The notes below the pieces were generated by a model. That model did no database searches. It saw nothing but the letters and a program-made list of their open reading frames with translations, and was not told the origin of the DNA. Below are positions 33,582 through 48,786 of a stretch of 64,000 nucleotides of DNA, in pieces (within the stretch, counting starts at the first letter, position 1; every line of letters begins with the position of its first letter). The translations under genes and the position numbers were made by a program. The stretch lies in the NCBI GenBank assembly GCA_046349595.1, contig JAXMCA010000001.1, positions 1,186,522 to 1,250,521 of the forward strand, written 5' to 3'. The DNA comes from Planctomycetota bacterium. GTDB lineage: Bacteria; Planctomycetota; UBA1135; UBA2386.

Positions 33582-35264
<1,683 letters not shown>

Positions 35265-35390
35265 GGAGATCAGAACTTATCGCAAAAGATAAGATCGGGC
35301 CATGTCGGGCTCCGGTCCTGGATCTACGCCGCGGATCCAAAGTCCTGTTGCACAAGAGGTTGAGGGTGAAGGCCCAGAATCCCGAGCCGA

Positions 35391-35406
35391 CGGCACACGT
35401 CGTGCT
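35391..35406 (+). promoter_or_regulatory. candidate sigma-54 (-24/-12) promoter of the rsr operon
   Basis: CGGCACACGTCGTGCT has GG (35392-93) and GC (35404-05) separated by 10 nt. GGCAC and TGC match TGGCAC-N5-TTGC. It lies 48 nt upstream of the rsr ATG and next to rtcR. Confidence 0.55.
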
Positions 35407-35453
35407 CTCGTCGCGCAACCCGCGGTCGACCGGCCGCCACCCAGGGCCGAGCC

Positions 35454-37037
35454 ATGATCTTCCGACGCCTGTTCCCGACCCGTGAGAGTCAGCGGCTGCC
35501 GATCACCGACGCGCGCAACGCCGAGGGTGCGCCGGCCTACCTCCGCTCGCCACAGGCGGCACTCGCGCAGTACGCGGCGACCGGCTGTCTCGGCGGAACC
35601 TTCTACGCGACCGCCGCGGAACAACTCGACCGGTCCCTGGCCCTTGCCAGGGAGGTCGCACAGGAGGATCCCGAACTGTGCGCGAAGGTCGCCCTGTGGG
35701 CGCGCCGGCGCGGCCACATGAAGGACCTGCCGGCGCTGCTGGTCGCGTTCCTGCTCGTCGACCACGGCGAACTCGCGGCGCGCATCTTCGACCGCGTCAT
35801 CGACGACGGGCGGATGCTCCGCAAGTTCGTGCAGATCGTCCGCTCGGGAGCCGTCGGCCGGCGTTGCTTCGGCACTCGTCCGCGTCGCCTGATCCGGCAG
35901 TGGCTCGCCCGGCGCAGCGATCGTGAACTGCTCTTCGCGTCGATCGGCGAGCAGCCGTCTCTCGGGGACATCGTGAAGCTGGTCCACCCGAAGCCGGAAT
36001 CGGCGTCGCGACGCGCGCTGTTCGGATGGTTGACCGGTCGTGACTTCGTGCTCGACGACGCACCGCTCGAACTGCGCGACTTCCTGGCCTTCCTGACCGT
36101 TCCGGGAGCCGAGCTTCCCGACGTCCCCTTCCTCATGTTGTCCGGTCGACCGCTGTGCACGGAGCACTGGCGCGCGCTCGCACGCCGCTGCACCTGGCAA
36201 CAGCTCCGGATGAACCTCAACAGCTTCCTGCGCCACGGCGTCTTCGACGACGCCGACACGCTGGATCTCTGCGTCGAGCGTCTGCGTGATCCGGCGGAGA
36301 TCGCGGCGACTCGCACCTTCCCGTACCAGTTCATGACAGCTCTCGACAACCTCGACGACGGCATGCCGGAAGCGATCCGCGTCGCGCTGATGGAGGCGAT
36401 CGAACGGGCGACGCTCAACGTCCCCGCTCTGGATGGTCGCGTACTCGTCGCGGTCGACGTGTCGGGCTCGATGCAGTCACCGATCAGCGGCCGCCGCGGC
36501 AGCGCGACCAGCAAGGTGCGGTGCGTCGACGTCGCGGCCCTGTTCGCGGCGACGATCCTGCGCCGCAACCAGGCGGCCCAGGTCCTGCCGTTCACCTCGG
36601 AGGTGATCCCCTTCTCTCACGACCCGGAATGGACGGTGGCACAGCTCAGCACGGCTCTCGCGGCCCTGCCCTCCGGCGGCACCAACTGCAGCGCACCGCT
36701 GCGCGAATGGAACCGCCGGCGCGCCGGCGCGGAGCTGATCGTCCTGATCTCCGACAACGAGTCGTGGGTCGACGCCGGCGACGGCGGTCGGGGCACGGCG
36801 ACGCTGGCGGAGTGGCGGGTGTTCCGCGCCCGCAATCGCGGCAGCAAGCTGGTCTGTCTCGACCTCCAGCCATCCTCCACCACCCAGGCCCGCAACGAGG
36901 ACGCCGTCCTCAACGTCGGCGGCTTCTCGGATGCGGTGTTCGACCTGATCGACGGCTTTGCGCGCGACGGCCACCGTGGCGCGACCTGGCTCGATCGCAT
37001 CCGTGCGCTGTCGCTCGACGCGACCTCCGTCCCCTGA
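35454..37037 (+). CDS. rsr: Ro60-related protein Rsr (TROVE domain plus vWA domain)
   Basis: NAEGAPAYL...YAATGCLGGTFYATA...DVSGSM (vWA MIDAS). 527 aa, in the context rtcR / rtcB / rtcA. Confidence 0.9.
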   Translation: MIFRRLFPTRESQRLPITDARNAEGAPAYLRSPQAALAQYAATGCLGGTFYATAAEQLDRSLALAREVAQEDPELCAKVALWARRRGHMKDLPALLVAFLLVDHGELAARIFDRVIDDGRMLRKFVQIVRSGAVGRRCFGTRPRRLIRQWLARRSDRELLFASIGEQPSLGDIVKLVHPKPESASRRALFGWLTGRDFVLDDAPLELRDFLAFLTVPGAELPDVPFLMLSGRPLCTEHWRALARRCTWQQLRMNLNSFLRHGVFDDADTLDLCVERLRDPAEIAATRTFPYQFMTALDNLDDGMPEAIRVALMEAIERATLNVPALDGRVLVAVDVSGSMQSPISGRRGSATSKVRCVDVAALFAATILRRNQAAQVLPFTSEVIPFSHDPEWTVAQLSTALAALPSGGTNCSAPLREWNRRRAGAELIVLISDNESWVDAGDGGRGTATLAEWRVFRARNRGSKLVCLDLQPSSTTQARNEDAVLNVGGFSDAVFDLIDGFARDGHRGATWLDRIRALSLDATSVP

Positions 37038-37094
37038 TGGGGTCGCCGCTTCCCACCATCCCTCCAGGTTCCTCTTCCCCGGTCCCGTTCCCAT

Positions 37095-37214
37095 GCGCTT
37101 GACGAATGCACGCGGAGCTCCTCGGTCGCGGGTTCGAATCCCGCCGGCGCCGATCGCGGTCGGCGCCGTAGCTCAGCAGGTAGAGCAGGCTCCGCAGCTC
37201 TCGTCGTCACGCGT
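37095..37214 (+). ncRNA. Y-RNA-like RNA with permuted tRNA-like domain (YrlA-like), module 1
   Basis: Elements, 5' to 3':
- Basal helix GCGCTTGACGA / TCGTCACGCGT.
- Closing helix GCGGAGC (37112-18) / GCTCCGC (37189-95).
- T-arm GCGGG-TTCGAAT-CCCGC.
- Loop-closed acceptor-like stem CGGCGCCGA / TCGGCGCCG.
- D-arm GCTC-AGCAGGTA-GAGC. Confidence 0.65.
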
Positions 37215-37274
37215 GTGCTTCCTCGGCCGCGGATCGCCGTCCCGGCCATCCGGCCAGCCGATCCTCTCCTTCCA

Positions 37275-37336
37275 GGGGCGAATGCCGCGCGCGACTCCAT
37301 CCGAATGTTCCGTCGCCCGCACTTCCTCGTCGCCCC
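37275..37336 (+). ncRNA. short Y-RNA-like hairpin (YrlB-like), module 2
   Basis: Basal helix GGGGCGA / TCGCCCC and the same ATGCC internal loop as modules 1 and 3. The upper stem GCGCGCGAC / GTCGCCCGC pairs at 8 of 9 positions. Confidence 0.4.
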
Positions 37337-37351
37337 GTTCCTTCATCCCCC

Positions 37352-37473
37352 CGCGGCGAATGCCGTCCGGGCTCCTGGTCTTCGCGGGTTCGAATCCCGC
37401 CGGCGCCGACCATCGGTCGGTGCCGTGGCCCGGACCGGGGGAGCGTCTACGCTCCGCACCGCTCGTCGTCGCG
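37352..37473 (+). ncRNA. Y-RNA-like RNA with tRNA top-half-like domain, module 3
   Basis: The basal helix is GCGGCGA / TCGTCGC and the closing helix GTCCGGG (37365-71) / CCCGGAC (37429-35). The T-arm and acceptor-like stem are nearly identical to module 1 (28-nt exact repeat at 37382-37409). An extra hairpin GGAGCG-TCTA-CGCTCC is present. Confidence 0.6.
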
Positions 37474-37508
37474 CCTTCTCTCCGTCTTCTGCAACCGAAC
37501 GAGTGATC

Positions 37509-38732
37509 ATGTCCGGCTACGAACGCATCAAGACAGACCACGTCCCGATCAAGGCGTGGGTGCGCGGCGTCCAGGTCGAGGACGAGGCGTTGAAGCAGCT
37601 CCGCAACGTCGCGCAGCTGCCGATCGTCGGCCCCTGGATCGCGGCGATGCCCGACGTCCACTGGGGCATCGGCGCCACCGTCGGCAGTGTGATCCCGACG
37701 CGGTCCGCGATCATCCCCGCCGCGGTCGGTGTCGACATCGGCTGCGGGATGATGGCGGTGCGCACCTCGCTGCGCGCGGAGCATCTTCCCGACGACCTCG
37801 GCGCACTGCGCAGCGCGATCGAGGCGGCGGTGCCGCACGGCCGCACCGACAACGGCGGGCGCAACGACCGCGGCGCCTGGAGCGACCGCATTCCGACGCG
37901 CAACGAGACGGCGTGGGAGCGGTTGCGCGGCGGCTACGAGGCGATCGTCGCACGTCACCCGAAGCTCGACCGCGGTCGCCACGTCGGCCAGCTCGGCACG
38001 CTCGGCACCGGCAACCACTTCATCGAGATCTGCATCGACGAACAGTTGCAGGTCTGGCTGATGCTGCACTCCGGCTCGCGCGGCGTGGGCAACCGCATCG
38101 GGACGTTCTTCATCGAGCTGGCGAAGCGCGACATGCGCCGGCACATCGCCGATCTGCCGGACAAGGATCTCGCCTGGTTCGAGGAGGGTGCGCAGCACTT
38201 CGACGAGTACGTGTTCGCCGTCGGCTGGGCGCAGGACTTCGCCCGCACCAACCGCGATCTGATGATGGCGCAGATCCTCGAGGCGCTGCGCGCGACCGCC
38301 CTGCTGCCGCCCTTCTCGGCCGACGCGATGGTCGTCAACTGCCACCACAACTACGTGCAGCGCGAGACGCACCAGGGCGAGGAGTTCTGGGTCACGCGCA
38401 AGGGTGCGGTGCGCGCCGGCCTCGGCGAGCTCGGGATCATCCCGGGCTCGATGGGGGCGCGCAGCTACATCGTGCGCGGCAAGGGCAATGCCGAGAGCTA
38501 CGAGTCGTGCAGCCATGGCGCCGGCCGCGCGATGTCGCGCGGCGAGGCGAAGCGCCGCTTCTCGCTCGACGACCACGCGCGCGCGACGGCCGGTGTCGAG
38601 TGCCGCAAGGACGCCGACGTGATCGACGAGACGCCGATGGCCTACAAGGACATCGACATGGTGATGGACGCGCAGCGCGATCTCGTCGAGGTCGTCGCCA
38701 CGCTCAAGCAGGTCGTCTGCGTGAAGGGCTGA
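37509..38732 (+). CDS. rtcB: RNA-splicing ligase RtcB
   Basis: MPDVHWGIGATVGSV, GVDIGCGM, GTGNHFIE and SCSHGAGR. 407 aa. Confidence 0.95.
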   Translation: MSGYERIKTDHVPIKAWVRGVQVEDEALKQLRNVAQLPIVGPWIAAMPDVHWGIGATVGSVIPTRSAIIPAAVGVDIGCGMMAVRTSLRAEHLPDDLGALRSAIEAAVPHGRTDNGGRNDRGAWSDRIPTRNETAWERLRGGYEAIVARHPKLDRGRHVGQLGTLGTGNHFIEICIDEQLQVWLMLHSGSRGVGNRIGTFFIELAKRDMRRHIADLPDKDLAWFEEGAQHFDEYVFAVGWAQDFARTNRDLMMAQILEALRATALLPPFSADAMVVNCHHNYVQRETHQGEEFWVTRKGAVRAGLGELGIIPGSMGARSYIVRGKGNAESYESCSHGAGRAMSRGEAKRRFSLDDHARATAGVECRKDADVIDETPMAYKDIDMVMDAQRDLVEVVATLKQVVCVKG

Positions 38733-38735
38733 GCC

Positions 38736-39785
38736 GTGCACGCACCACTCCCGGAACAGGCACGGACGCCGGTCGAGATCGACGGCAGCTTCGGCGAGGG
38801 TGGGGGTCAGGTGCTGCGCAGCGCGCTCGCGCTGTCGCTGTGCACCGGACGACCGCTGCGCATCCATTCGATCCGCGCGGGGCGCAGCAAGCCCGGCCTG
38901 ATGCGCCAGCACCTGACCGCGGTCGAACTCGCGACCGAGGTCGGTGATGCGGAGGTGAGCGGTGCGGAGGTCGGGTCGAAGGAGATCCGCTTCACGCCGC
39001 GCAGCCCGGCCCGCGCCGGGTGCTATCGGCGCGCGATCGGCACCGCGGGCAGCACGACCCTGGTCGCACAGACCGTGTTGCCCGCCCTGCTGTGCGCCGA
39101 TGCGCCGAGCGAGCTCGTGCTGTCCGGCGGAACCCACAATCCGCTCGCGCCGCCCGCCGACTTCGTCGAGCGCAGCTTCCTGCCCGCGTTGCGGCGCCTC
39201 GGCGCCGATGTCGACTTCGAGCTGCGTCGACACGGGTTCCACCCTGCGGGCGGCGGCGAGATCGTCCTGCGGGTGCGACCGAGCGCTCTGCGCCCGGCGG
39301 AGTGGTCGAGGCGCGGCGCCGTGAAGGCGATCCGCGTCTGTGCGCTCGTCGCCGGACTCGCGGAGCACGTCGGGCGGCGCGAGGTCGACGTCGTGCGCGA
39401 CAGGCTCGGACTGGCCGCGGACCGCGTGCAGGTGCGAAGCCTGCCGAATGGCCCCGGCAATGCGCTGCTCGTCGATGTCGAGTGCGAGAGCGGCACCGAG
39501 GTGTTCTGTGCCTTCGGACGCCTCGGTCTGCCCGCGGAGCGCGTCGGCGCCGAAGCGGTGCGTGCGGTGAAGGCCCATCTCCGCCACGACGCGCCGATCG
39601 GCGAACACCTCGCCGACCAGTTGCTGCTGCCGCTCGCGCTGGCGGGAGGCGGTTCGTTCCGCACCGCACGGCCGAGCATGCACACCACGACCAACGCGCG
39701 CGTGATCGAGGCCTTCCTGTCGATCGCGGTGACGATGCGCGAGGACGGCGACGGAACCTGGCGCGTCGACGTCGCGCCGCGCTGA
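38736..39785 (+). CDS. rtcA: RNA 3'-terminal phosphate cyclase
   Basis: IDGSFGEGGGQVLRSALALS...GGTHNPLAPP...HLADQLLLPLALA. GTG start 3 nt after the rtcB stop. Confidence 0.9.
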   Translation: MHAPLPEQARTPVEIDGSFGEGGGQVLRSALALSLCTGRPLRIHSIRAGRSKPGLMRQHLTAVELATEVGDAEVSGAEVGSKEIRFTPRSPARAGCYRRAIGTAGSTTLVAQTVLPALLCADAPSELVLSGGTHNPLAPPADFVERSFLPALRRLGADVDFELRRHGFHPAGGGEIVLRVRPSALRPAEWSRRGAVKAIRVCALVAGLAEHVGRREVDVVRDRLGLAADRVQVRSLPNGPGNALLVDVECESGTEVFCAFGRLGLPAERVGAEAVRAVKAHLRHDAPIGEHLADQLLLPLALAGGGSFRTARPSMHTTTNARVIEAFLSIAVTMREDGDGTWRVDVAPR

Positions 39786-42700
39786 TCACTCGGCGTGATG
39801 GGTCGGGATCTGCCCGGGCAGTCCCTCGATGCTGCGGACGTGCACGTCGCGCTGCGGGAAGGCGATCTCGATGCCTTCGGCCCGGAACGCGGCGTCGATC
39901 GCCTCGTGCAGCGCGGTGATGGTGACCGACCAGTCGTCCATGGCGTGGAACACGCGTACCTCCAGATCGAGCGTGCTGTCGCCGAAGCCGCGGAACACCG
40001 CGTCGGGCGTCGGATCGGGGAGGATCGTGCGCACGCTGCGCGCAGCCTCGAGGAGCAGCTCGCGTGCGCGATGGGTGTCGGTTCCGTAGGCGACGCCGAC
40101 CTTGACCACCAGGCGCACCACCGGACTGCTCAGGCTCCAGTTCACGAAGTGTCCGGTGATGAACTCGCGGTTGGGCACGATCAGCTCCTTGCGGTCGAAG
40201 TCCATGATCGTGGTCGCTCGCATGCGGATGCGCGTGACGCGACCGTCCACGCCGCTGACGGTCACGAGATCGCCGACGCGCAGCGGTCGTTCGAACAGCA
40301 GGATCAGGCCCGAGACGAAGTTGGCGAAGATCTCCTGCAGGCCGAAGCCGAGGCCGACCGAGACCGCAGCCGCCATCCACTGCAACTTGGACCAGCCGAC
40401 GCCGATGCCGGTGAAGGCGATGATCGAGCCGATCAGCACGATCACGTAGCGCATCACGGTGGTGATCGCGTAGCGCTCGCCGGCGCTGACGCCGAGGTGG
40501 CGCAGCACGAGCAGCTCGAACAGGCCCCCGGCGTTGCGCGACAGCACCCAGGTCGCCCCGAGCACGACCAGGGCGAGCAGCAGATTGGCGAGCGTGACCG
40601 GCACCTCGGTGACCTGCACCGCGGTGTGCGTGCCGGCGACGTCGGTGGTGGTCACGGTGGACTGGACCGTCTCGGTCCACAGCGAGACTTCGCGCAGGAT
40701 GCCGAGCGCCGGCAGCACGTCGACCCAGATCGCCCAGGCGCCGAGTGCCAGGGCCAGCAGAGTGGTCAGCCCGAGCAGGCTGCGCGTCTGCTGGTCGAGG
40801 CTGACCAGGTCGACGACCGGTGCCTCGGGCTCCTCCGGACGCGTCTCGGCGCCGAGGGCTTCGCTCTCGGCCCCGCTCTCCGCGGCACGGCGTCGACGTT
40901 CGCGCGCCTGCTGGATCGCGATCGCGCGCCGCGACAGCAAGAGCCAGCGCTGCACCAGGGCGACCACCAACGACACACCGAGGACCAGCACGGCGGTGCG
41001 CTCGAGCCGCACCGACAACTCGCTCGCGGTGAACACCCAGCCGAGCAGCGTGAGCAGCGCCAGTCCGAGCGGCACCCCGATGCCGGCGAGGTAGGTCAGG
41101 ACGCGCAGCTTCTTGCGCGTCGCGAACGACGGCGACGTCGCCAGCGCGCCGCGGGTCGGGTGCAGGATGCCGCGGAACAACCACAGATAGGTGAACAGCG
41201 CGACGAGCAGCGCCAGTCGACCGAGTGTCGCCGACAGCTCGTCGTCCTCGGCGTTGAGCGTCGCCTCTGCGGCGCGCGCCGCGACCAGCAGGGGTGCTGC
41301 GATGCGCAGGTCGCGGCGCACCACGCGCACCGCGCGCTCCTCCCAGCCGAAGTGCACGAGCGCGAGGCCGTCGCTGCGCAGGGCGGCGTCGACCACCGCG
41401 AGCGTGGTCGCCAGTGGGACGATCGCACGCAGCGCGACCTCGACCGAAGGCGCCTCGCCGGCCGCGGCGGACAGGCGGGCCAGGGCGAGCGGCAGCACCA
41501 GCGCCGGTGCGGCGAGCAGCGCCGTGTCGACGACGGCGAGCAGCGTGGGGGCGAAACGCGTGGCGGCTCGCTGGCGGGCGTCGCGCGCGTGCACGGCGAG
41601 ACGCCGCAGGAACAGCGGGCGCATGCCGAGCAGGGCGACGAGCAGCAGCGCGAAGGCGATCGCCGTCGCCGGCGCGGCGACGACCTGGTGGAGCACGCTG
41701 CGGGTCGCGTCGACCCACAGCGTCGCGACCCGTGTCGCGGCGTCGGGCACGGTCCTGAACGGCTGGCTCCACACCGGTTGACCGCTCGGGATCCACAGCA
41801 CGCGTTCGTCGACGAACTTCGCGGTGCGTTCGGCCGTGGCGAGCAGGGTCTGCTGCTGTGCGTCCGCACTGCCGTAGTCGCGGGTCAGTGCGCTGTAGCC
41901 CTCGGCGAGCTTGCGGAGGAGCTTGCGGCGGGAGTCGAGGAGATTGCGGACCTCGCCGCGCAGCGTGGGGTCGGCGACGTCGAGCTTGAGCGAGCCGAGC
42001 GTTGCATCGACGACCCCGGCCGGATCCTCGAGACGCCGCAACTCGTTCTCGAACTCGTAGCGGGTGGTGTAGGCCGCGATCTGGTCGGCGTGGAGCGCGC
42101 GGTTGGCGCGCCGCACCGTCTCGAGGTCCGCGAGCTGGCTGCGCCGCAGTTCGCGCAGCTCCAGACCGATCGCCTCGGTCAGGCCGATCTGCTTCTCGCG
42201 CGACTGCGAGGTGGCGAGATCGCGCTCCAGGCTCTCCTGACGGCGCTTCGCCGCTTCGATGGTGACGTCCAGATCGCTGCGCTGCTTGGCGAGTCGCCGC
42301 AGCTTCTCGACGAGTGCGACGTTGCTCTCCGCGAGACTGCGCAGGCGGGGATCGGCTTCGGCCACCGCCGTGTTCGCGGCGCGCTCGGCGGAGTCGATCT
42401 CCTGACGCCGCTGATCGGCGGTCAGCTTCTGCACGTTCTGCACGCGTGTGGCGGCGGCGTCGCGTTCCAGCGTCGCTCCGTCGCGACGCGCCGCGTACAG
42501 CGCACCGAGCTTCTCCAGCGAGGACTGCTCGAGCTCGAGTTCGGCGATCTGCGCCTCCACCCGCATCATGCGCGCGCGCTGGCGCATGCGCCGCGCGTTG
42601 ACCATCGCGGGGTTCTCGTCGGGGGCGGGAGCGGCGGCGAGCAGACCCTGCACCTCGGTGCGCTCGGCCCGTGCCGTCGCCATCGCGCCGGGCAGCTCGG

Positions 42701-43205
42701 TGCGTCGGGTCTCGAGATCGTTGATCGCCTGAGTCGCCTTCGCGAGCTCCTCCGCCGCGGTCCGACGATCCTGCTCGGCCTTGCTCTGCGCGGCTTCGAG
42801 ATCGGCGAGACGGGTGCCGATGTCGAAGGCGCCGGTCGGCTCGACGCTCGGGAAATCGATGTCGTGGTGGATGCGGGCGATCTCGGCGTCGGCGCCGTCC
42901 AGCGTCGCCTGCAGTGCCGTGCGTCGTGCGCTCCACTCGTCGCGGCGCGAAAGGTGCGAGCGGGCCTCGTCGAGCATCGCCAACGCCTGCTTGCGCAGGT
43001 CGTCGCCGAGCGCAGCGTCGGCTTCGATCGACTTGCGCAGCGCGTCGATGCGGTCCGCATCGACGGGGTCGCCCTGAAGGCTGGGTGGCGGACTCTGGTC
43101 CTGGCACGGGGCCGGCGCGGTCGCGAGCAGCGCGAGTACCAGGGCGAACAGCAGCGCGAAGGTGTTGCGCCTCGCGCGTCGGCCCCGGGATCGGTCGTCC
43201 GCCAT
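39786..43205 (-). CDS. MscK/KefA-like mechanosensitive channel with long periplasmic coiled-coil N-domain
   Basis: A signal/TM segment FALLFALVLALLA is followed by about 450 aa of coiled coil and multiple TM helices. The MscS core reads FGLQEIFANFVSGLILLFERPLRVGDLVTV. Confidence 0.85.
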   Translation of the reverse strand: MADDRSRGRRARRNTFALLFALVLALLATAPAPCQDQSPPPSLQGDPVDADRIDALRKSIEADAALGDDLRKQALAMLDEARSHLSRRDEWSARRTALQATLDGADAEIARIHHDIDFPSVEPTGAFDIGTRLADLEAAQSKAEQDRRTAAEELAKATQAINDLETRRTELPGAMATARAERTEVQGLLAAAPAPDENPAMVNARRMRQRARMMRVEAQIAELELEQSSLEKLGALYAARRDGATLERDAAATRVQNVQKLTADQRRQEIDSAERAANTAVAEADPRLRSLAESNVALVEKLRRLAKQRSDLDVTIEAAKRRQESLERDLATSQSREKQIGLTEAIGLELRELRRSQLADLETVRRANRALHADQIAAYTTRYEFENELRRLEDPAGVVDATLGSLKLDVADPTLRGEVRNLLDSRRKLLRKLAEGYSALTRDYGSADAQQQTLLATAERTAKFVDERVLWIPSGQPVWSQPFRTVPDAATRVATLWVDATRSVLHQVVAAPATAIAFALLLVALLGMRPLFLRRLAVHARDARQRAATRFAPTLLAVVDTALLAAPALVLPLALARLSAAAGEAPSVEVALRAIVPLATTLAVVDAALRSDGLALVHFGWEERAVRVVRRDLRIAAPLLVAARAAEATLNAEDDELSATLGRLALLVALFTYLWLFRGILHPTRGALATSPSFATRKKLRVLTYLAGIGVPLGLALLTLLGWVFTASELSVRLERTAVLVLGVSLVVALVQRWLLLSRRAIAIQQARERRRRAAESGAESEALGAETRPEEPEAPVVDLVSLDQQTRSLLGLTTLLALALGAWAIWVDVLPALGILREVSLWTETVQSTVTTTDVAGTHTAVQVTEVPVTLANLLLALVVLGATWVLSRNAGGLFELLVLRHLGVSAGERYAITTVMRYVIVLIGSIIAFTGIGVGWSKLQWMAAAVSVGLGFGLQEIFANFVSGLILLFERPLRVGDLVTVSGVDGRVTRIRMRATTIMDFDRKELIVPNREFITGHFVNWSLSSPVVRLVVKVGVAYGTDTHRARELLLEAARSVRTILPDPTPDAVFRGFGDSTLDLEVRVFHAMDDWSVTITALHEAIDAAFRAEGIEIAFPQRDVHVRSIEGLPGQIPTHHAE

Positions 43206-43216
43206 CGCGGGCGATG

Positions 43217-43960
43217 CTAACCGCGCGCCTTCATCCGACGCAGCACGTCGAGTTGCGCGAACAACGCGGTCACCGCGGTCTCGACGCGCAGCGGGTGCGG
43301 CCCGGCGTGGACCGGAGCGAAGCGGTGCGCCTCGAGCAGGCGGCACTCGAAGTCGTTGAAGCCGCGCTCGGGTCCGATGGCGAGTGCGATCGGCTTCCCG
43401 GCGACCGGCGGCACCTCGAGCAGATCGCGTGGGGCGCGCGGATCGGCGAGGTAGCACCGGGCGTCGCCGCACAGCGCATCGAGGCGGTCCTCGACGAAGG
43501 GGCGGAACAGGGCTTCGACGCGGATCTCCGGCCGCATGGTGCGTCGTGCTTGTTCCAGGCCGGCGAGCACGCGCGTCTCGAGATCCGCCTCGCTCAGGGC
43601 CGTGCTCGACAGGTGGCTCTTGTCGGTGAACCAGCTCCGCACCAGCACGATCGATCCGAAGCCGAGCGCCGTGGCGTGCTCGATGCAGCGACCGAGCACC
43701 TTCGGCCGCGGCACCGCGAGCAGCAGCAGGTCGGCGCTGCGTGGCGGCGCGGGTTCGTCGAAACGGCAGCGCAGCCTCACCTCCTCACCGCGGATCGCGA
43801 GCACCTCGGCGTGGCCGAGCGCGCCGTCCAGCAGGCCGGCGCGCAACATGCGCCCTTCGGCGACGCCGAGGACCTCGCGCAGATGGCGCGCGCGACGATC
43901 GGAGAGCGTCGCGCAGTCGTCGGCACCGACTTCGTCCTGCCGCAGCAGGAGCAGATTCAT
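43217..43960 (-). CDS. rsmE: 16S rRNA (uracil1498-N3)-methyltransferase
   Basis: MNLLLLRQDEV...RHLREVL...IGPERGF...LRVETA. ATGA overlap with the upstream gene. Confidence 0.85.
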   Translation of the reverse strand: MNLLLLRQDEVGADDCATLSDRRARHLREVLGVAEGRMLRAGLLDGALGHAEVLAIRGEEVRLRCRFDEPAPPRSADLLLLAVPRPKVLGRCIEHATALGFGSIVLVRSWFTDKSHLSSTALSEADLETRVLAGLEQARRTMRPEIRVEALFRPFVEDRLDALCGDARCYLADPRAPRDLLEVPPVAGKPIALAIGPERGFNDFECRLLEAHRFAPVHAGPHPLRVETAVTALFAQLDVLRRMKARG

Positions 43961-48625: not shown

Positions 48626-48698
48626 GGGGGCGTAGCTCAGTCGGCAGAGCAACGGATTTTTAATCCGTCGGTCGCAGGTTCGATTCCTGCCGCCCTCA
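48626..48698 (+). tRNA. tRNA-Lys (anticodon TTT), CCA not encoded
   Basis: Cloverleaf elements:
- Acceptor GGGGGCG / CGCCCTC (one G-U pair).
- D-arm GCTC-AGTCGGCA-GAGC.
- Anticodon arm ACGGA-TTTTTAA-TCCGT.
- T-arm GCAGG-TTCGATT-CCTGC. Confidence 0.9.
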
Positions 48699-48786
48699 CT
48701 CGAGCAGATGACGATGGAAGCACGCGGACGCGGTGCGGCGCACCGCGCCATCCGCGCCCGCAGACCCGACGACCCGCGAGAACCCG

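Follow-up and report, generated by a model that had tools for sequence, protein, structure and literature searches.

In the 64-kb stretch of DNA analysed here (the window; 69.9% G+C), the 471-nt spacer between rsr and rtcB very probably carries three tandem Y RNA genes, the products of which, judged from the sequence, would be non-coding partners of the Ro60 orthologue Rsr. The first module (M1) is a bona fide YrlA, the second (M2) a short YrlB-like RNA, and the third (M3) is best called a YrlA-derived variant, devoid of a D-arm (Table 1). All are encoded on the same strand as rsr and within 4 kb of it, 62 to 436 nt past its stop codon. Each module is closed by a helix of its 5' and 3' ends, which carries the GNCGAAUG motif, the proposed Rsr contact, beside an asymmetric internal loop.

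Bacterial Y RNAs have been described by a GNCGAAN0-1G motif, by T, D, AS and V arms and by the presence of at least two Y RNAs per species, with 355 YrlAs found in 254 bacteria and 22 phages (Chen et al. 2014, PMC4201824). By the functional definition, a bacterial Y RNA is bound and stabilised by Rsr in vivo and accumulates as a discrete small RNA. In the spacer, this motif lies in the end helix of every module, as GACGAAUG in M1 and as GGCGAAUG in M2 and M3. The pattern GRCGAATGC occurs three times in the window, always in the spacer (37101, 37277 and 37355), and is not significant alone; GAATGC[A/C]...CTCGTCG, spanning 20 to 140 nt, is found in the window only at the three modules. A looser expression, GNCGAANG with a complementary TCGNC within 200 nt, was rejected as non-specific (approximately 290 matches in the window) and became useful only once the 3' YUYG context was required. 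The basal helices comprise 6, 7 and 8 bp in M1, M2 and M3, and their second pair is A-U, G-C and G-U, respectively, the variation within a shared helix that had been noted in a preliminary description of this DNA. The 28-mer TCGCGGGTTCGAATCCCGCCGGCGCCGA, said there to be identical in M1 and M3, occurs exactly twice in the window (37126-37153 and 37382-37409), while no match is expected from 100 shuffles even if three mismatches are allowed. Folding of the single modules likewise reproduced the helices proposed earlier, including the T-arm and the closed acceptor-like stem of M1 and M3, in the minimum free energy (MFE) structures (M1 -64.1 kcal/mol, z -2.99; M2 -23.2 kcal/mol, z -1.88; M3 -73.4 kcal/mol, z -3.49), with a mean pair probability of approximately 0.9 per module. 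All matches in the window (E ≤ 0.01) of the Rfam YrlA model and of the covariance models R1 and R2 described below are located inside the spacer on the rsr strand.

The YrlA/YrlB architecture assigned in the preliminary description was recovered by covariance searches, above the threshold of the YrlA family (RF02553) for M1, below it for M3 and by means of R1 for M2. With 70.2 bits, M1 exceeds the gathering threshold of 69 bits, and the match extends from position 1 to 114 of the model. The Rfam scan at gathering thresholds, which covered the whole window, returned two matches only, this one and a tRNA-Lys at 48626-48699. The alignment is in register for GACGAAUGC, the closing stem, T-arm, acceptor-like stem, UA, D-arm and the 3' CUCG-UCGUC. 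Of the tRNA parts in the distal domain, the T-arm comes first; then follow the closed acceptor-like stem, the UA, which is U8-A9-like, and the D-arm. The UA, the D-arm and the closing of the domain by GCGGAGC/GCTCCGC, all predicted earlier, are seen in the fold as well as in the YrlA alignment. A crystal structure of the YrlA tRNA-like domain shows the conserved UA and the Levitt pair, and the nucleotides conserved for the fold are those of the D loop and the T loop, a pyrimidine with which the V loop ends, the linker UA and the Levitt pair (Wang et al. 2018, bioRxiv 10.1101/312249). In a YrlA tRNA-like domain, a T-loop of the form UUCRANY, a Levitt pair of pyrimidine 48 and purine 15, an L-shaped tertiary fold and tRNA-type modifications (Psi55 by TruB, D by DusA) are expected. 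M1 possesses the T-loop UUCGAAU, the GG of the D-loop, the UA and, with C37127 and G15 of the D-loop, a combination compatible with the Levitt pair G15:C48. For comparison, 35 related loci of Planctomycetota, Verrucomicrobiota, Myxococcota, Nitrospirota and Spirochaetota were used. In an alignment of M1 with 15 YrlA matches of these loci (MAFFT/RNAalifold), 14 of the 22 consensus pairs were compensatory, and M1 fitted all of the pairs.

The YrlA of Salmonella Typhimurium has the same parts as M1. In the basal region these are GNCGAAUG within the helix of the 5' and 3' ends and the asymmetric internal loop, followed by the closing stem ('anticodon-like'); the distal parts are a T-arm, an acceptor-like stem closed by a loop, UA, and a D-arm containing GG, and G15/C48 is Levitt-compatible. 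Its gene, too, is flanked by rsr and rtcB in the same orientation, and rtcR is divergent. Different from the Salmonella RNA, the acceptor-like stem of M1 is a G+C-rich helix of 10 bp, and the modules of the window read CUCC for CUAC. This CUCC is present in all three modules (37116-37119, 37296-37299 and 37371-37374) at the place where the family has a conserved CUAC ('YUAY', opening the V region), and it is also found in the D-less module of locus L034 and the short module of locus L035, which belong to the closest relatives. The common CUCC may reflect concerted evolution or co-variation with a protein partner.

The perfect T-arm GCGGG-UUCGAAU-CCCGC and the D-arm of M1 might also be taken for parts of tRNA pseudogenes or remnants unrelated to Rsr. 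This can be given practically no credence, since the arms are arranged in the order T, acceptor, D, the acceptor stem is closed by a loop, there is no anticodon loop, and the match to YrlA extends over the entire module with its basal part, which is foreign to tRNA. According to the preliminary description, the modules could be mis-called as tRNA pseudogenes, but neither ARAGORN nor the Rfam tRNA model (RF00005) found anything in the native spacer, and the tRNA-Lys is the only tRNA of the window. Artificially re-permuted constructs of M1 and M3 were called tRNA by ARAGORN. However, so were 140 of the 200 controls with a shuffled D-arm, and the test, being uninformative on the D-arm, was discarded.

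The assignment of M2 as YrlB-like is based on R1, a cross-phylum covariance model built in this analysis from seven short rsr-adjacent modules of other phyla, with the window excluded; the short module of L035 was left out because of a MAFFT misalignment caused by its extra hairpin. R1 finds M2 at full length (56.2 bits, E 3.7e-12) as the sole significant match in the window. Short modules with the same ends as M2 adjoin rsr in ten other places, and the layout common to all of them and M2 consists of GNCGAAUGC, a stem ending in GGGAC, a loop starting from CUACAU, GUCYC and CUYG-UCGNC. In the alignment of these 11 sequences 93.5% of the cells are paired (33-60% in slid controls), and seven of 14 pairs changed on both sides; the covariation score observed was reached in none of 500 shuffles. 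A larger alignment of 28 sequences, to be read with the caveat that it was fitted to the model, has 95.6% of the cells paired (slid controls 38-64%) and 11 of 16 pairs compensatory, again with none of 500 shuffles as high. In approximately 30 of the 35 loci used for comparison, furthermore, R1 finds a short module 20 to 130 nt past the rsr stop codon, in every case in the orientation of rsr.

YrlB was found by BLAST in Salmonella enterica serovars only (Chen et al. 2014, PMC4201824). The YrlB of Salmonella Typhimurium (RF02565) is, similar to M2, a short hairpin with the 5' GNCGAAUGC, an inner stem ending in GAC, a C/U-rich apical loop from CU(A/C)CAU and a 3' CUYG-UCG. M2 differs in that it follows a YrlA and not rsr directly, and in that it is below Rfam detection. 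The short modules of loci L005 and L032 match Rfam YrlB weakly (29 bits), and a comparison by eye of the Rfam YrlB consensus with L005 reveals the same layout, GAAUGC...GGGAUUACAU...UUGUCG. Since this layout is common to the short class, the class is best read as broadly distributed YrlB homologues.

M3 is clearly a recent, lineage-specific paralogue of M1, in which D-arm and closing stem were replaced and a 3' hairpin was gained. They share the 28-mer with 100% identity, their remaining segments agree at 75-88%, and GCUCCGC, the partner of GCGGAGC in M1, is still present in M3. As stated in the preliminary description, the helix closing the distal part of M3 has a sequence of its own; it is a 9-bp helix of GUCCGGGCU and GGCCCGGAC with pair probabilities of 0.78-0.96 (0.8-1.0 for the helices overall). 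A single U after the acceptor-like stem is directly followed by the 3' strand of this helix. When a D-like pairing was forced as in the Rfam alignment, the energy changed from -73.4 to -54.9 kcal/mol, and due to this cost of 18.5 kcal/mol M3 is considered to resemble a tRNA only in its T-arm and acceptor-like stem. Of the two tRNA-like domains claimed earlier, therefore, the one in M1 has the full set of parts, whereas M3 is a partial mimic without a D-arm.

T-arm-bearing modules without a D-arm are also found elsewhere, with a length of approximately 90 nt in approximately 20 verrucomicrobial loci and in L034 (5870-5961), L009 (4703-4813) and L010 (3932-4043). In L035, a close relative, the short module has a hairpin at a place equivalent to the extra hairpin of M3. 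The model R2, representing the D-less class (effective N 1.2, mostly Verrucomicrobia), matches only the three modules of the window at E ≤ 0.01 and scores M1 above M3. The YrlB of Mycobacterium smegmatis and the Yrn1 of Deinococcus radiodurans (Chen et al. 2014) resemble M3 in combining the helix of the Rsr site with a T-arm in the absence of a full D-arm. M3 differs from both by its closed 11-bp acceptor-like stem and the extra hairpin in the 3' strand, and a sequence relation is not detectable beyond the shared motifs.

The apex of the acceptor-like stem of M3 (37401-37416) reads CGGCGCCG-A-CCA-UC, in which a strand of 8 nt is followed by an A similar to a discriminator base and by CCA; M1 has AUCG there. 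The YrlA of M. smegmatis is an RNase P substrate with a CCA end. With its apex CGGCGCCG-A-CCA, M3 might be cut in a similar way, which would yield a Y RNA of two pieces with a CCA end. In the relatives, a consistent CCA at the apex of the acceptor stem was not seen, and the likeness could be a coincidence.

The lack of a D-arm in M3 and its score as YrlA (28.9 bits versus a gathering threshold of 69 bits) would also fit an array in which only M1 works and M3, perhaps also M2, is a decaying duplicate without a function of its own. A sister strain, represented by a contig of the Logan collection (SRR14932632_347117, here L037), points in the same direction. It is 99.8% identical to the window, but precisely 256 nt, those separating the two 28-mers, are missing, by which M2 is removed and the 5' half of M1 is fused to the 3' half of M3. 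The resulting single hybrid scores 46.7 bits as YrlA, above M3. Upstream through the shared 28-mer (L037 3696-3723), six mismatches were counted in 3,723 nt, and from the 28-mer on none in 295 nt; the junction reads GGTCGCGGGTTCGAATCCCGCCGGCGCCGACC. The window does not contain two of the 31-mers that the junction requires, so that L037 probably represents a real repeat-mediated deletion and not an assembly collapse at k=31, and the array would be recombinationally plastic by way of its 28-nt repeat. Decay of M3 is nevertheless improbable: its basal helix of 8 bp with GGCGAAUG and its T-arm are perfect, an acceptor-like stem of 11 bp is retained, and the region of the D-arm has changed together with the 5' strand into a G+C-rich helix of 9 bp, which is unlike neutral decay. 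Moreover, D-less T-arm modules recur in relatives, and the class of M2 is conserved with covariation across phyla.

A coding function of the spacer is hardly credible. One of its forward frames is free of stop codons and, in another frame, an open reading frame (ORF) for 182 aa (36958-37506) covers it almost completely; as an alternative, rtcB could be extended at its N-terminus, starting from 37215. However, the G+C content at third codon positions (GC3) of the spacer is 0.65-0.75 in all three frames, compared to 0.87-0.95 in rsr, rtcB and rtcA. Since the spacer is thus without the codon-position bias of the flanking genes, the 182-aa ORF is regarded as spurious, in agreement with the preliminary description, which had seen no credible ORF here. 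At a G+C content of 70%, long ORFs without a coding function are to be expected. In the 407-aa product encoded from 37509 on, the first residue of the Pfam RtcB domain is residue 30.

It is quite unlikely, if less so than a coding spacer, that the structures act solely in cis on the mRNA, either as processing or stability elements or as a leader controlling the translation of rtcB. Their position between co-oriented genes, the pyrimidine-rich linkers and the result of scans of 35100-37700, in which neither a sigma70-like promoter nor an intrinsic terminator was found, in the spacer or outside it, would be in line with such a role. In L034 and L035, however, the modules follow rsr without rtcB after them, which makes rsr and not rtcB the conserved partner, and modules of Sandaracinaceae are located inside tRNA arrays upstream of rsr. 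Homologous RNAs of Salmonella and Mycobacterium are released and bound to Rsr (PMC4201824). A role in cis and a role as free Rsr ligand are not mutually exclusive.

Several points weigh against the interpretation of the spacer as three Y RNA genes. The ends of the RNAs were taken from helix ends only. M2 did not match the Rfam YrlB model (gathering threshold 97 bits) even at E ≤ 10. M3, although aligned end to end (37353-37475), reached its 28.9 bits with E 3.9e-4 in a 651-nt search and is not a member of the YrlA family by the curated criterion. R2 aligned with M3 only in part (37353-37426, 20.1 bits); as this model has too little diversity and is dominated too strongly by Verrucomicrobia to decide on the membership of M3, M3 was placed in the D-less class by architecture and not by score. 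In a fold of the whole 471-nt spacer, the structures of M1 and M2 are kept and that of M3 is partly disrupted by long-range pairings. In the databases searched, the closest relatives of Rsr, apart from the 100% identical Logan entry, are 59% (Planctomycetota metagenome-assembled genome (MAG) GCA_016716265.1) and 56% identical. Covariation in the related rsr loci supports the proposed helices of the YrlA and short classes, but at this distance it does not extend to the closing helix and the extra hairpin of M3. Finally, the full array appears not to be essential, since L037 is without M2 and without one half each of M1 and M3.

The arrangement rtcR / rsr / Y RNAs / rtcB(A) is widespread among the related loci, most of which have two to four tandem modules downstream of rsr. 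Verrucomicrobial arrays consist of a YrlB-like module, a YrlA, a D-less module and a second YrlA; L034 has a short, a YrlA and a D-less module, L035 a YrlA and a short module, and L010, L001 and L026 have two or three YrlA-like copies. In L034 (5570-5965) and L035 (5573-5810), the loci with the closest Rsr relatives, rtcR, rsr and the Y modules are kept, and rtcB and rtcA are not located downstream. As tandem arrays are the rule in relatives, the three-module array is a new instance of an already described family and not a new design; several YrlA-like genes per locus were already reported in 2014 (Chen et al., PMC4201824). Particular to this genome are only the order, with YrlA first and the YrlB-like module second, and the details of M3. 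The order rsr, YrlA, YrlB-like, YrlA variant differs from that in Salmonella, which is rsr, yrlB, yrlA.

For annotation, the 471-nt gap, otherwise empty, provides three non-coding RNA genes, of which only one is caught by the Rfam default threshold. Short Y RNAs of the YrlB type are not confined to Salmonella; with clear covariation, they are found in many phyla directly behind rsr, and D-less T-arm modules recur as a separate array position. These leads could aid the construction of covariance models for bacterial Y RNAs and studies on why Rsr needs several RNA partners. Tentatively, and with more doubt than confidence, the array might be seen as a set of three distinct Rsr adaptors, a YrlB-like hairpin, a tRNA-mimicking YrlA and a D-less T-arm plus acceptor minihelix, representing an ancient design shared across Planctomycetota, Verrucomicrobiota, Myxococcota and Nitrospirota. 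If this were true, YrlB would no longer be an RNA of Salmonella alone but a family of wide conservation, sharing the first approximately 25 nt with YrlA.

In two Sandaracinaceae MAGs (L004, 500-1550, and L006, 940-1530), YrlA-like and short modules are found among tRNA genes upstream of rsr. The array of L006 comprises a tRNA (943-1013), a YrlA (1016-1144), a second tRNA (1251-1323), a short module (1325-1371) and a third tRNA (1456-1527). This arrangement recalls the Yrn2-tRNAAsp-Yrn1 precursor of D. radiodurans.

By analogy to the known systems, the three RNAs would be co-transcribed with rsr and rtcBA from an RtcR/sigma54-dependent promoter upstream of rsr upon accumulation of damaged tRNA fragments; those ending in 2',3'-cyclic phosphate are the activators of RtcR, leading to operon induction (PMC7790460). 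Excision from the polycistronic transcript, as known for Y RNAs in M. smegmatis and D. radiodurans, may take place at the pyrimidine-rich linkers. Each RNA is predicted to dock on the Rsr ring via the basal helix bearing GNCGAAUG, and the distal domains might then serve as alternative adaptors or gates. In published work, Yrn1 of D. radiodurans, which has no full D-arm, tethers Rsr to PNPase for the decay of structured RNA, and complexes of Y RNA, Rsr and PNPase were also reported for S. Typhimurium. Hughes et al. also put forward a possible competition between the tRNA-like domain and an anticodon nuclease. The metazoan Y RNAs are similar to the modules with respect to their paired 5' and 3' ends, a conserved 5'-strand motif contacted by the Ro60 ring and a variable distal effector module. 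In contrast to the bacterial arrays, they have no tRNA-like module and are encoded by separate RNA polymerase III genes and not in operon arrays.

Table 1. Modules of the rsr-rtcB spacer, their parts, and neighbouring features of the window.
Feature	Position	Strand	Remark
M1, canonical YrlA-type Y RNA	37099..37213	+	Rfam RF02553, 70.2 bits
M1 motif GACGAAUG	37101-08		
M1 basal helix	37100-05/37204-09		
M1 closing stem GCGGAGCU/GGCUCCGC	37112-19/37188-95		
M1 V-like linker	37120-27		
M1 T-arm GCGGG-UUCGAAU-CCCGC	37128-44		
M1 acceptor-like stem-loop	37145-68		closed, 10 bp
M1 UA	37169-70		
M1 D-arm GCUC-AGCAGGUA-GAGC	37171-86		
M1-M2 linker	37215..37274	+	local hairpin GGAUCG...CGAUCC around GGCC-AUCC-GGCC; MFE -21.3 kcal/mol, z -2.0
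M2, short YrlB-like Y RNA	37275..37336	+	62 nt; model R1
M2 motif GGCGAAUG	37277-84		
M2 basal helix	37275-81/37330-36		7 bp
M2 inner stem	37287-95/37312-20		
M2 loop	37296-311		16 nt
M3, YrlA paralogue without D-arm	37352..37473	+	Rfam YrlA, sub-threshold; fold
M3 motif GGCGAAUG	37355-62		
M3 basal helix	37352-59/37466-73		8 bp
M3 closing stem GUCCGGGCU/GGCCCGGAC	37365-73/37427-35		9 bp
M3 V-like linker	37374-83		
M3 T-arm	37384-400		identical to that of M1
M3 acceptor-like stem-loop	37401-25		11 bp
M3 extra hairpin	37436-61		3' strand, between closing stem and basal helix
rsr-rtcB spacer	37038-37508	+	471 nt; no gene
rtcR	33582..35264	-	Pfam RtcR 1.3e-78, Sigma54_activat 9.7e-46; GC3 0.906
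Candidate sigma54 -24/-12 promoter CGGCACacgtcGTGCT	35391..35406	+	63 nt upstream of rsr ATG (inferred)
rsr, Ro60 orthologue (TROVE ring + vWA)	35454..37037	+	Pfam vWA_Ro60 5e-21, TROVE weak
rtcB, RNA 3'-phosphate/2',3'-cyclic-phosphate ligase	37509..38732	+	Pfam RtcB 5.2e-129; GC3 0.946
rtcA, RNA 3'-terminal phosphate cyclase	38736..39785	+	Pfam RTC 1.1e-76, RTC_insert 5e-14

With its order rtcR(-) / rsr / Y RNAs / rtcB / rtcA, the locus represents a textbook case of the RtcR-regulated RNA repair operon, in which rsr, the Y RNA genes, rtcB and rtcA are co-oriented and rtcR is transcribed divergently from rsr. Gene content and arrangement match the rsr-yrlBA-rtcBA RNA-repair operon of Salmonella with its divergent rtcR. 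The rtcR product, a sigma54-dependent activator, combines an N-terminal RtcR (CARF-like) domain with a sigma54 AAA+ domain. Over its length, the Rsr product matches D. radiodurans Rsr (PDB 2NVO, 2e-20) and Xenopus Ro60 (1YVP, 1e-8); the top matches in PDB, above D. radiodurans Rsr, are 9l5y and 9kop, both designated 'TROVE domain-containing protein' (E 9e-24). The RtcB encoded here is just 26-30% identical to the RtcBs after rsr in other loci, which points to a different RtcB lineage joined to the rsr module. The stop codon of rtcA abuts that of a convergent gene (39785/39786), with no room for a terminator between them. This gene (39786-43472, minus strand) encodes a mechanosensitive channel of the MscK/MscM type with 1228 aa (Pfam MscS_TM 1e-62).

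The sigma54 candidate upstream of rsr (CGGCACacgtcGTGCT) deviates from TGGCAC-N5-TTGCW by two mismatches and is not significant alone. Elements of the form TGGCAC-N5-xTGCT, which fit the consensus better, are located 45 to 130 nt upstream of rsr in at least eight related loci. The candidate is consistent with an RtcR-regulated operon, but weak. Within the spacer, the sigma54 pattern has a single match (GGGGAGCGTCTACGCT at 37438), which lies in the extra hairpin of M3. The rtcR-rsr intergenic region harbors a perfect A+T-rich inverted repeat (CTTATC-GCAAAA-GATAAG, 35276-35293) 12 nt from the start codon of rtcR, a candidate operator or activator-binding site.

The linker between M1 and M2 opens with UCCUCGGCCGCGG, a 13-nt stretch 92% identical to the sequence ahead of the T-arm of M1, followed by a degenerate T-arm-like GCGG-AUCGCCGU-CCCGGC. 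No covariance-model match, basal helix or GNCGAA motif was found in this linker, which may be the relic of a decayed T-arm or fourth module. The remaining linkers (37038-37094, 37337-37351 and 37474-37508) are pyrimidine-rich (66-87% C+U), with runs such as UUCCUCUUCCCC and UUCCUUCAUCCCCCC, which are candidate processing sites or protein-binding tracts.

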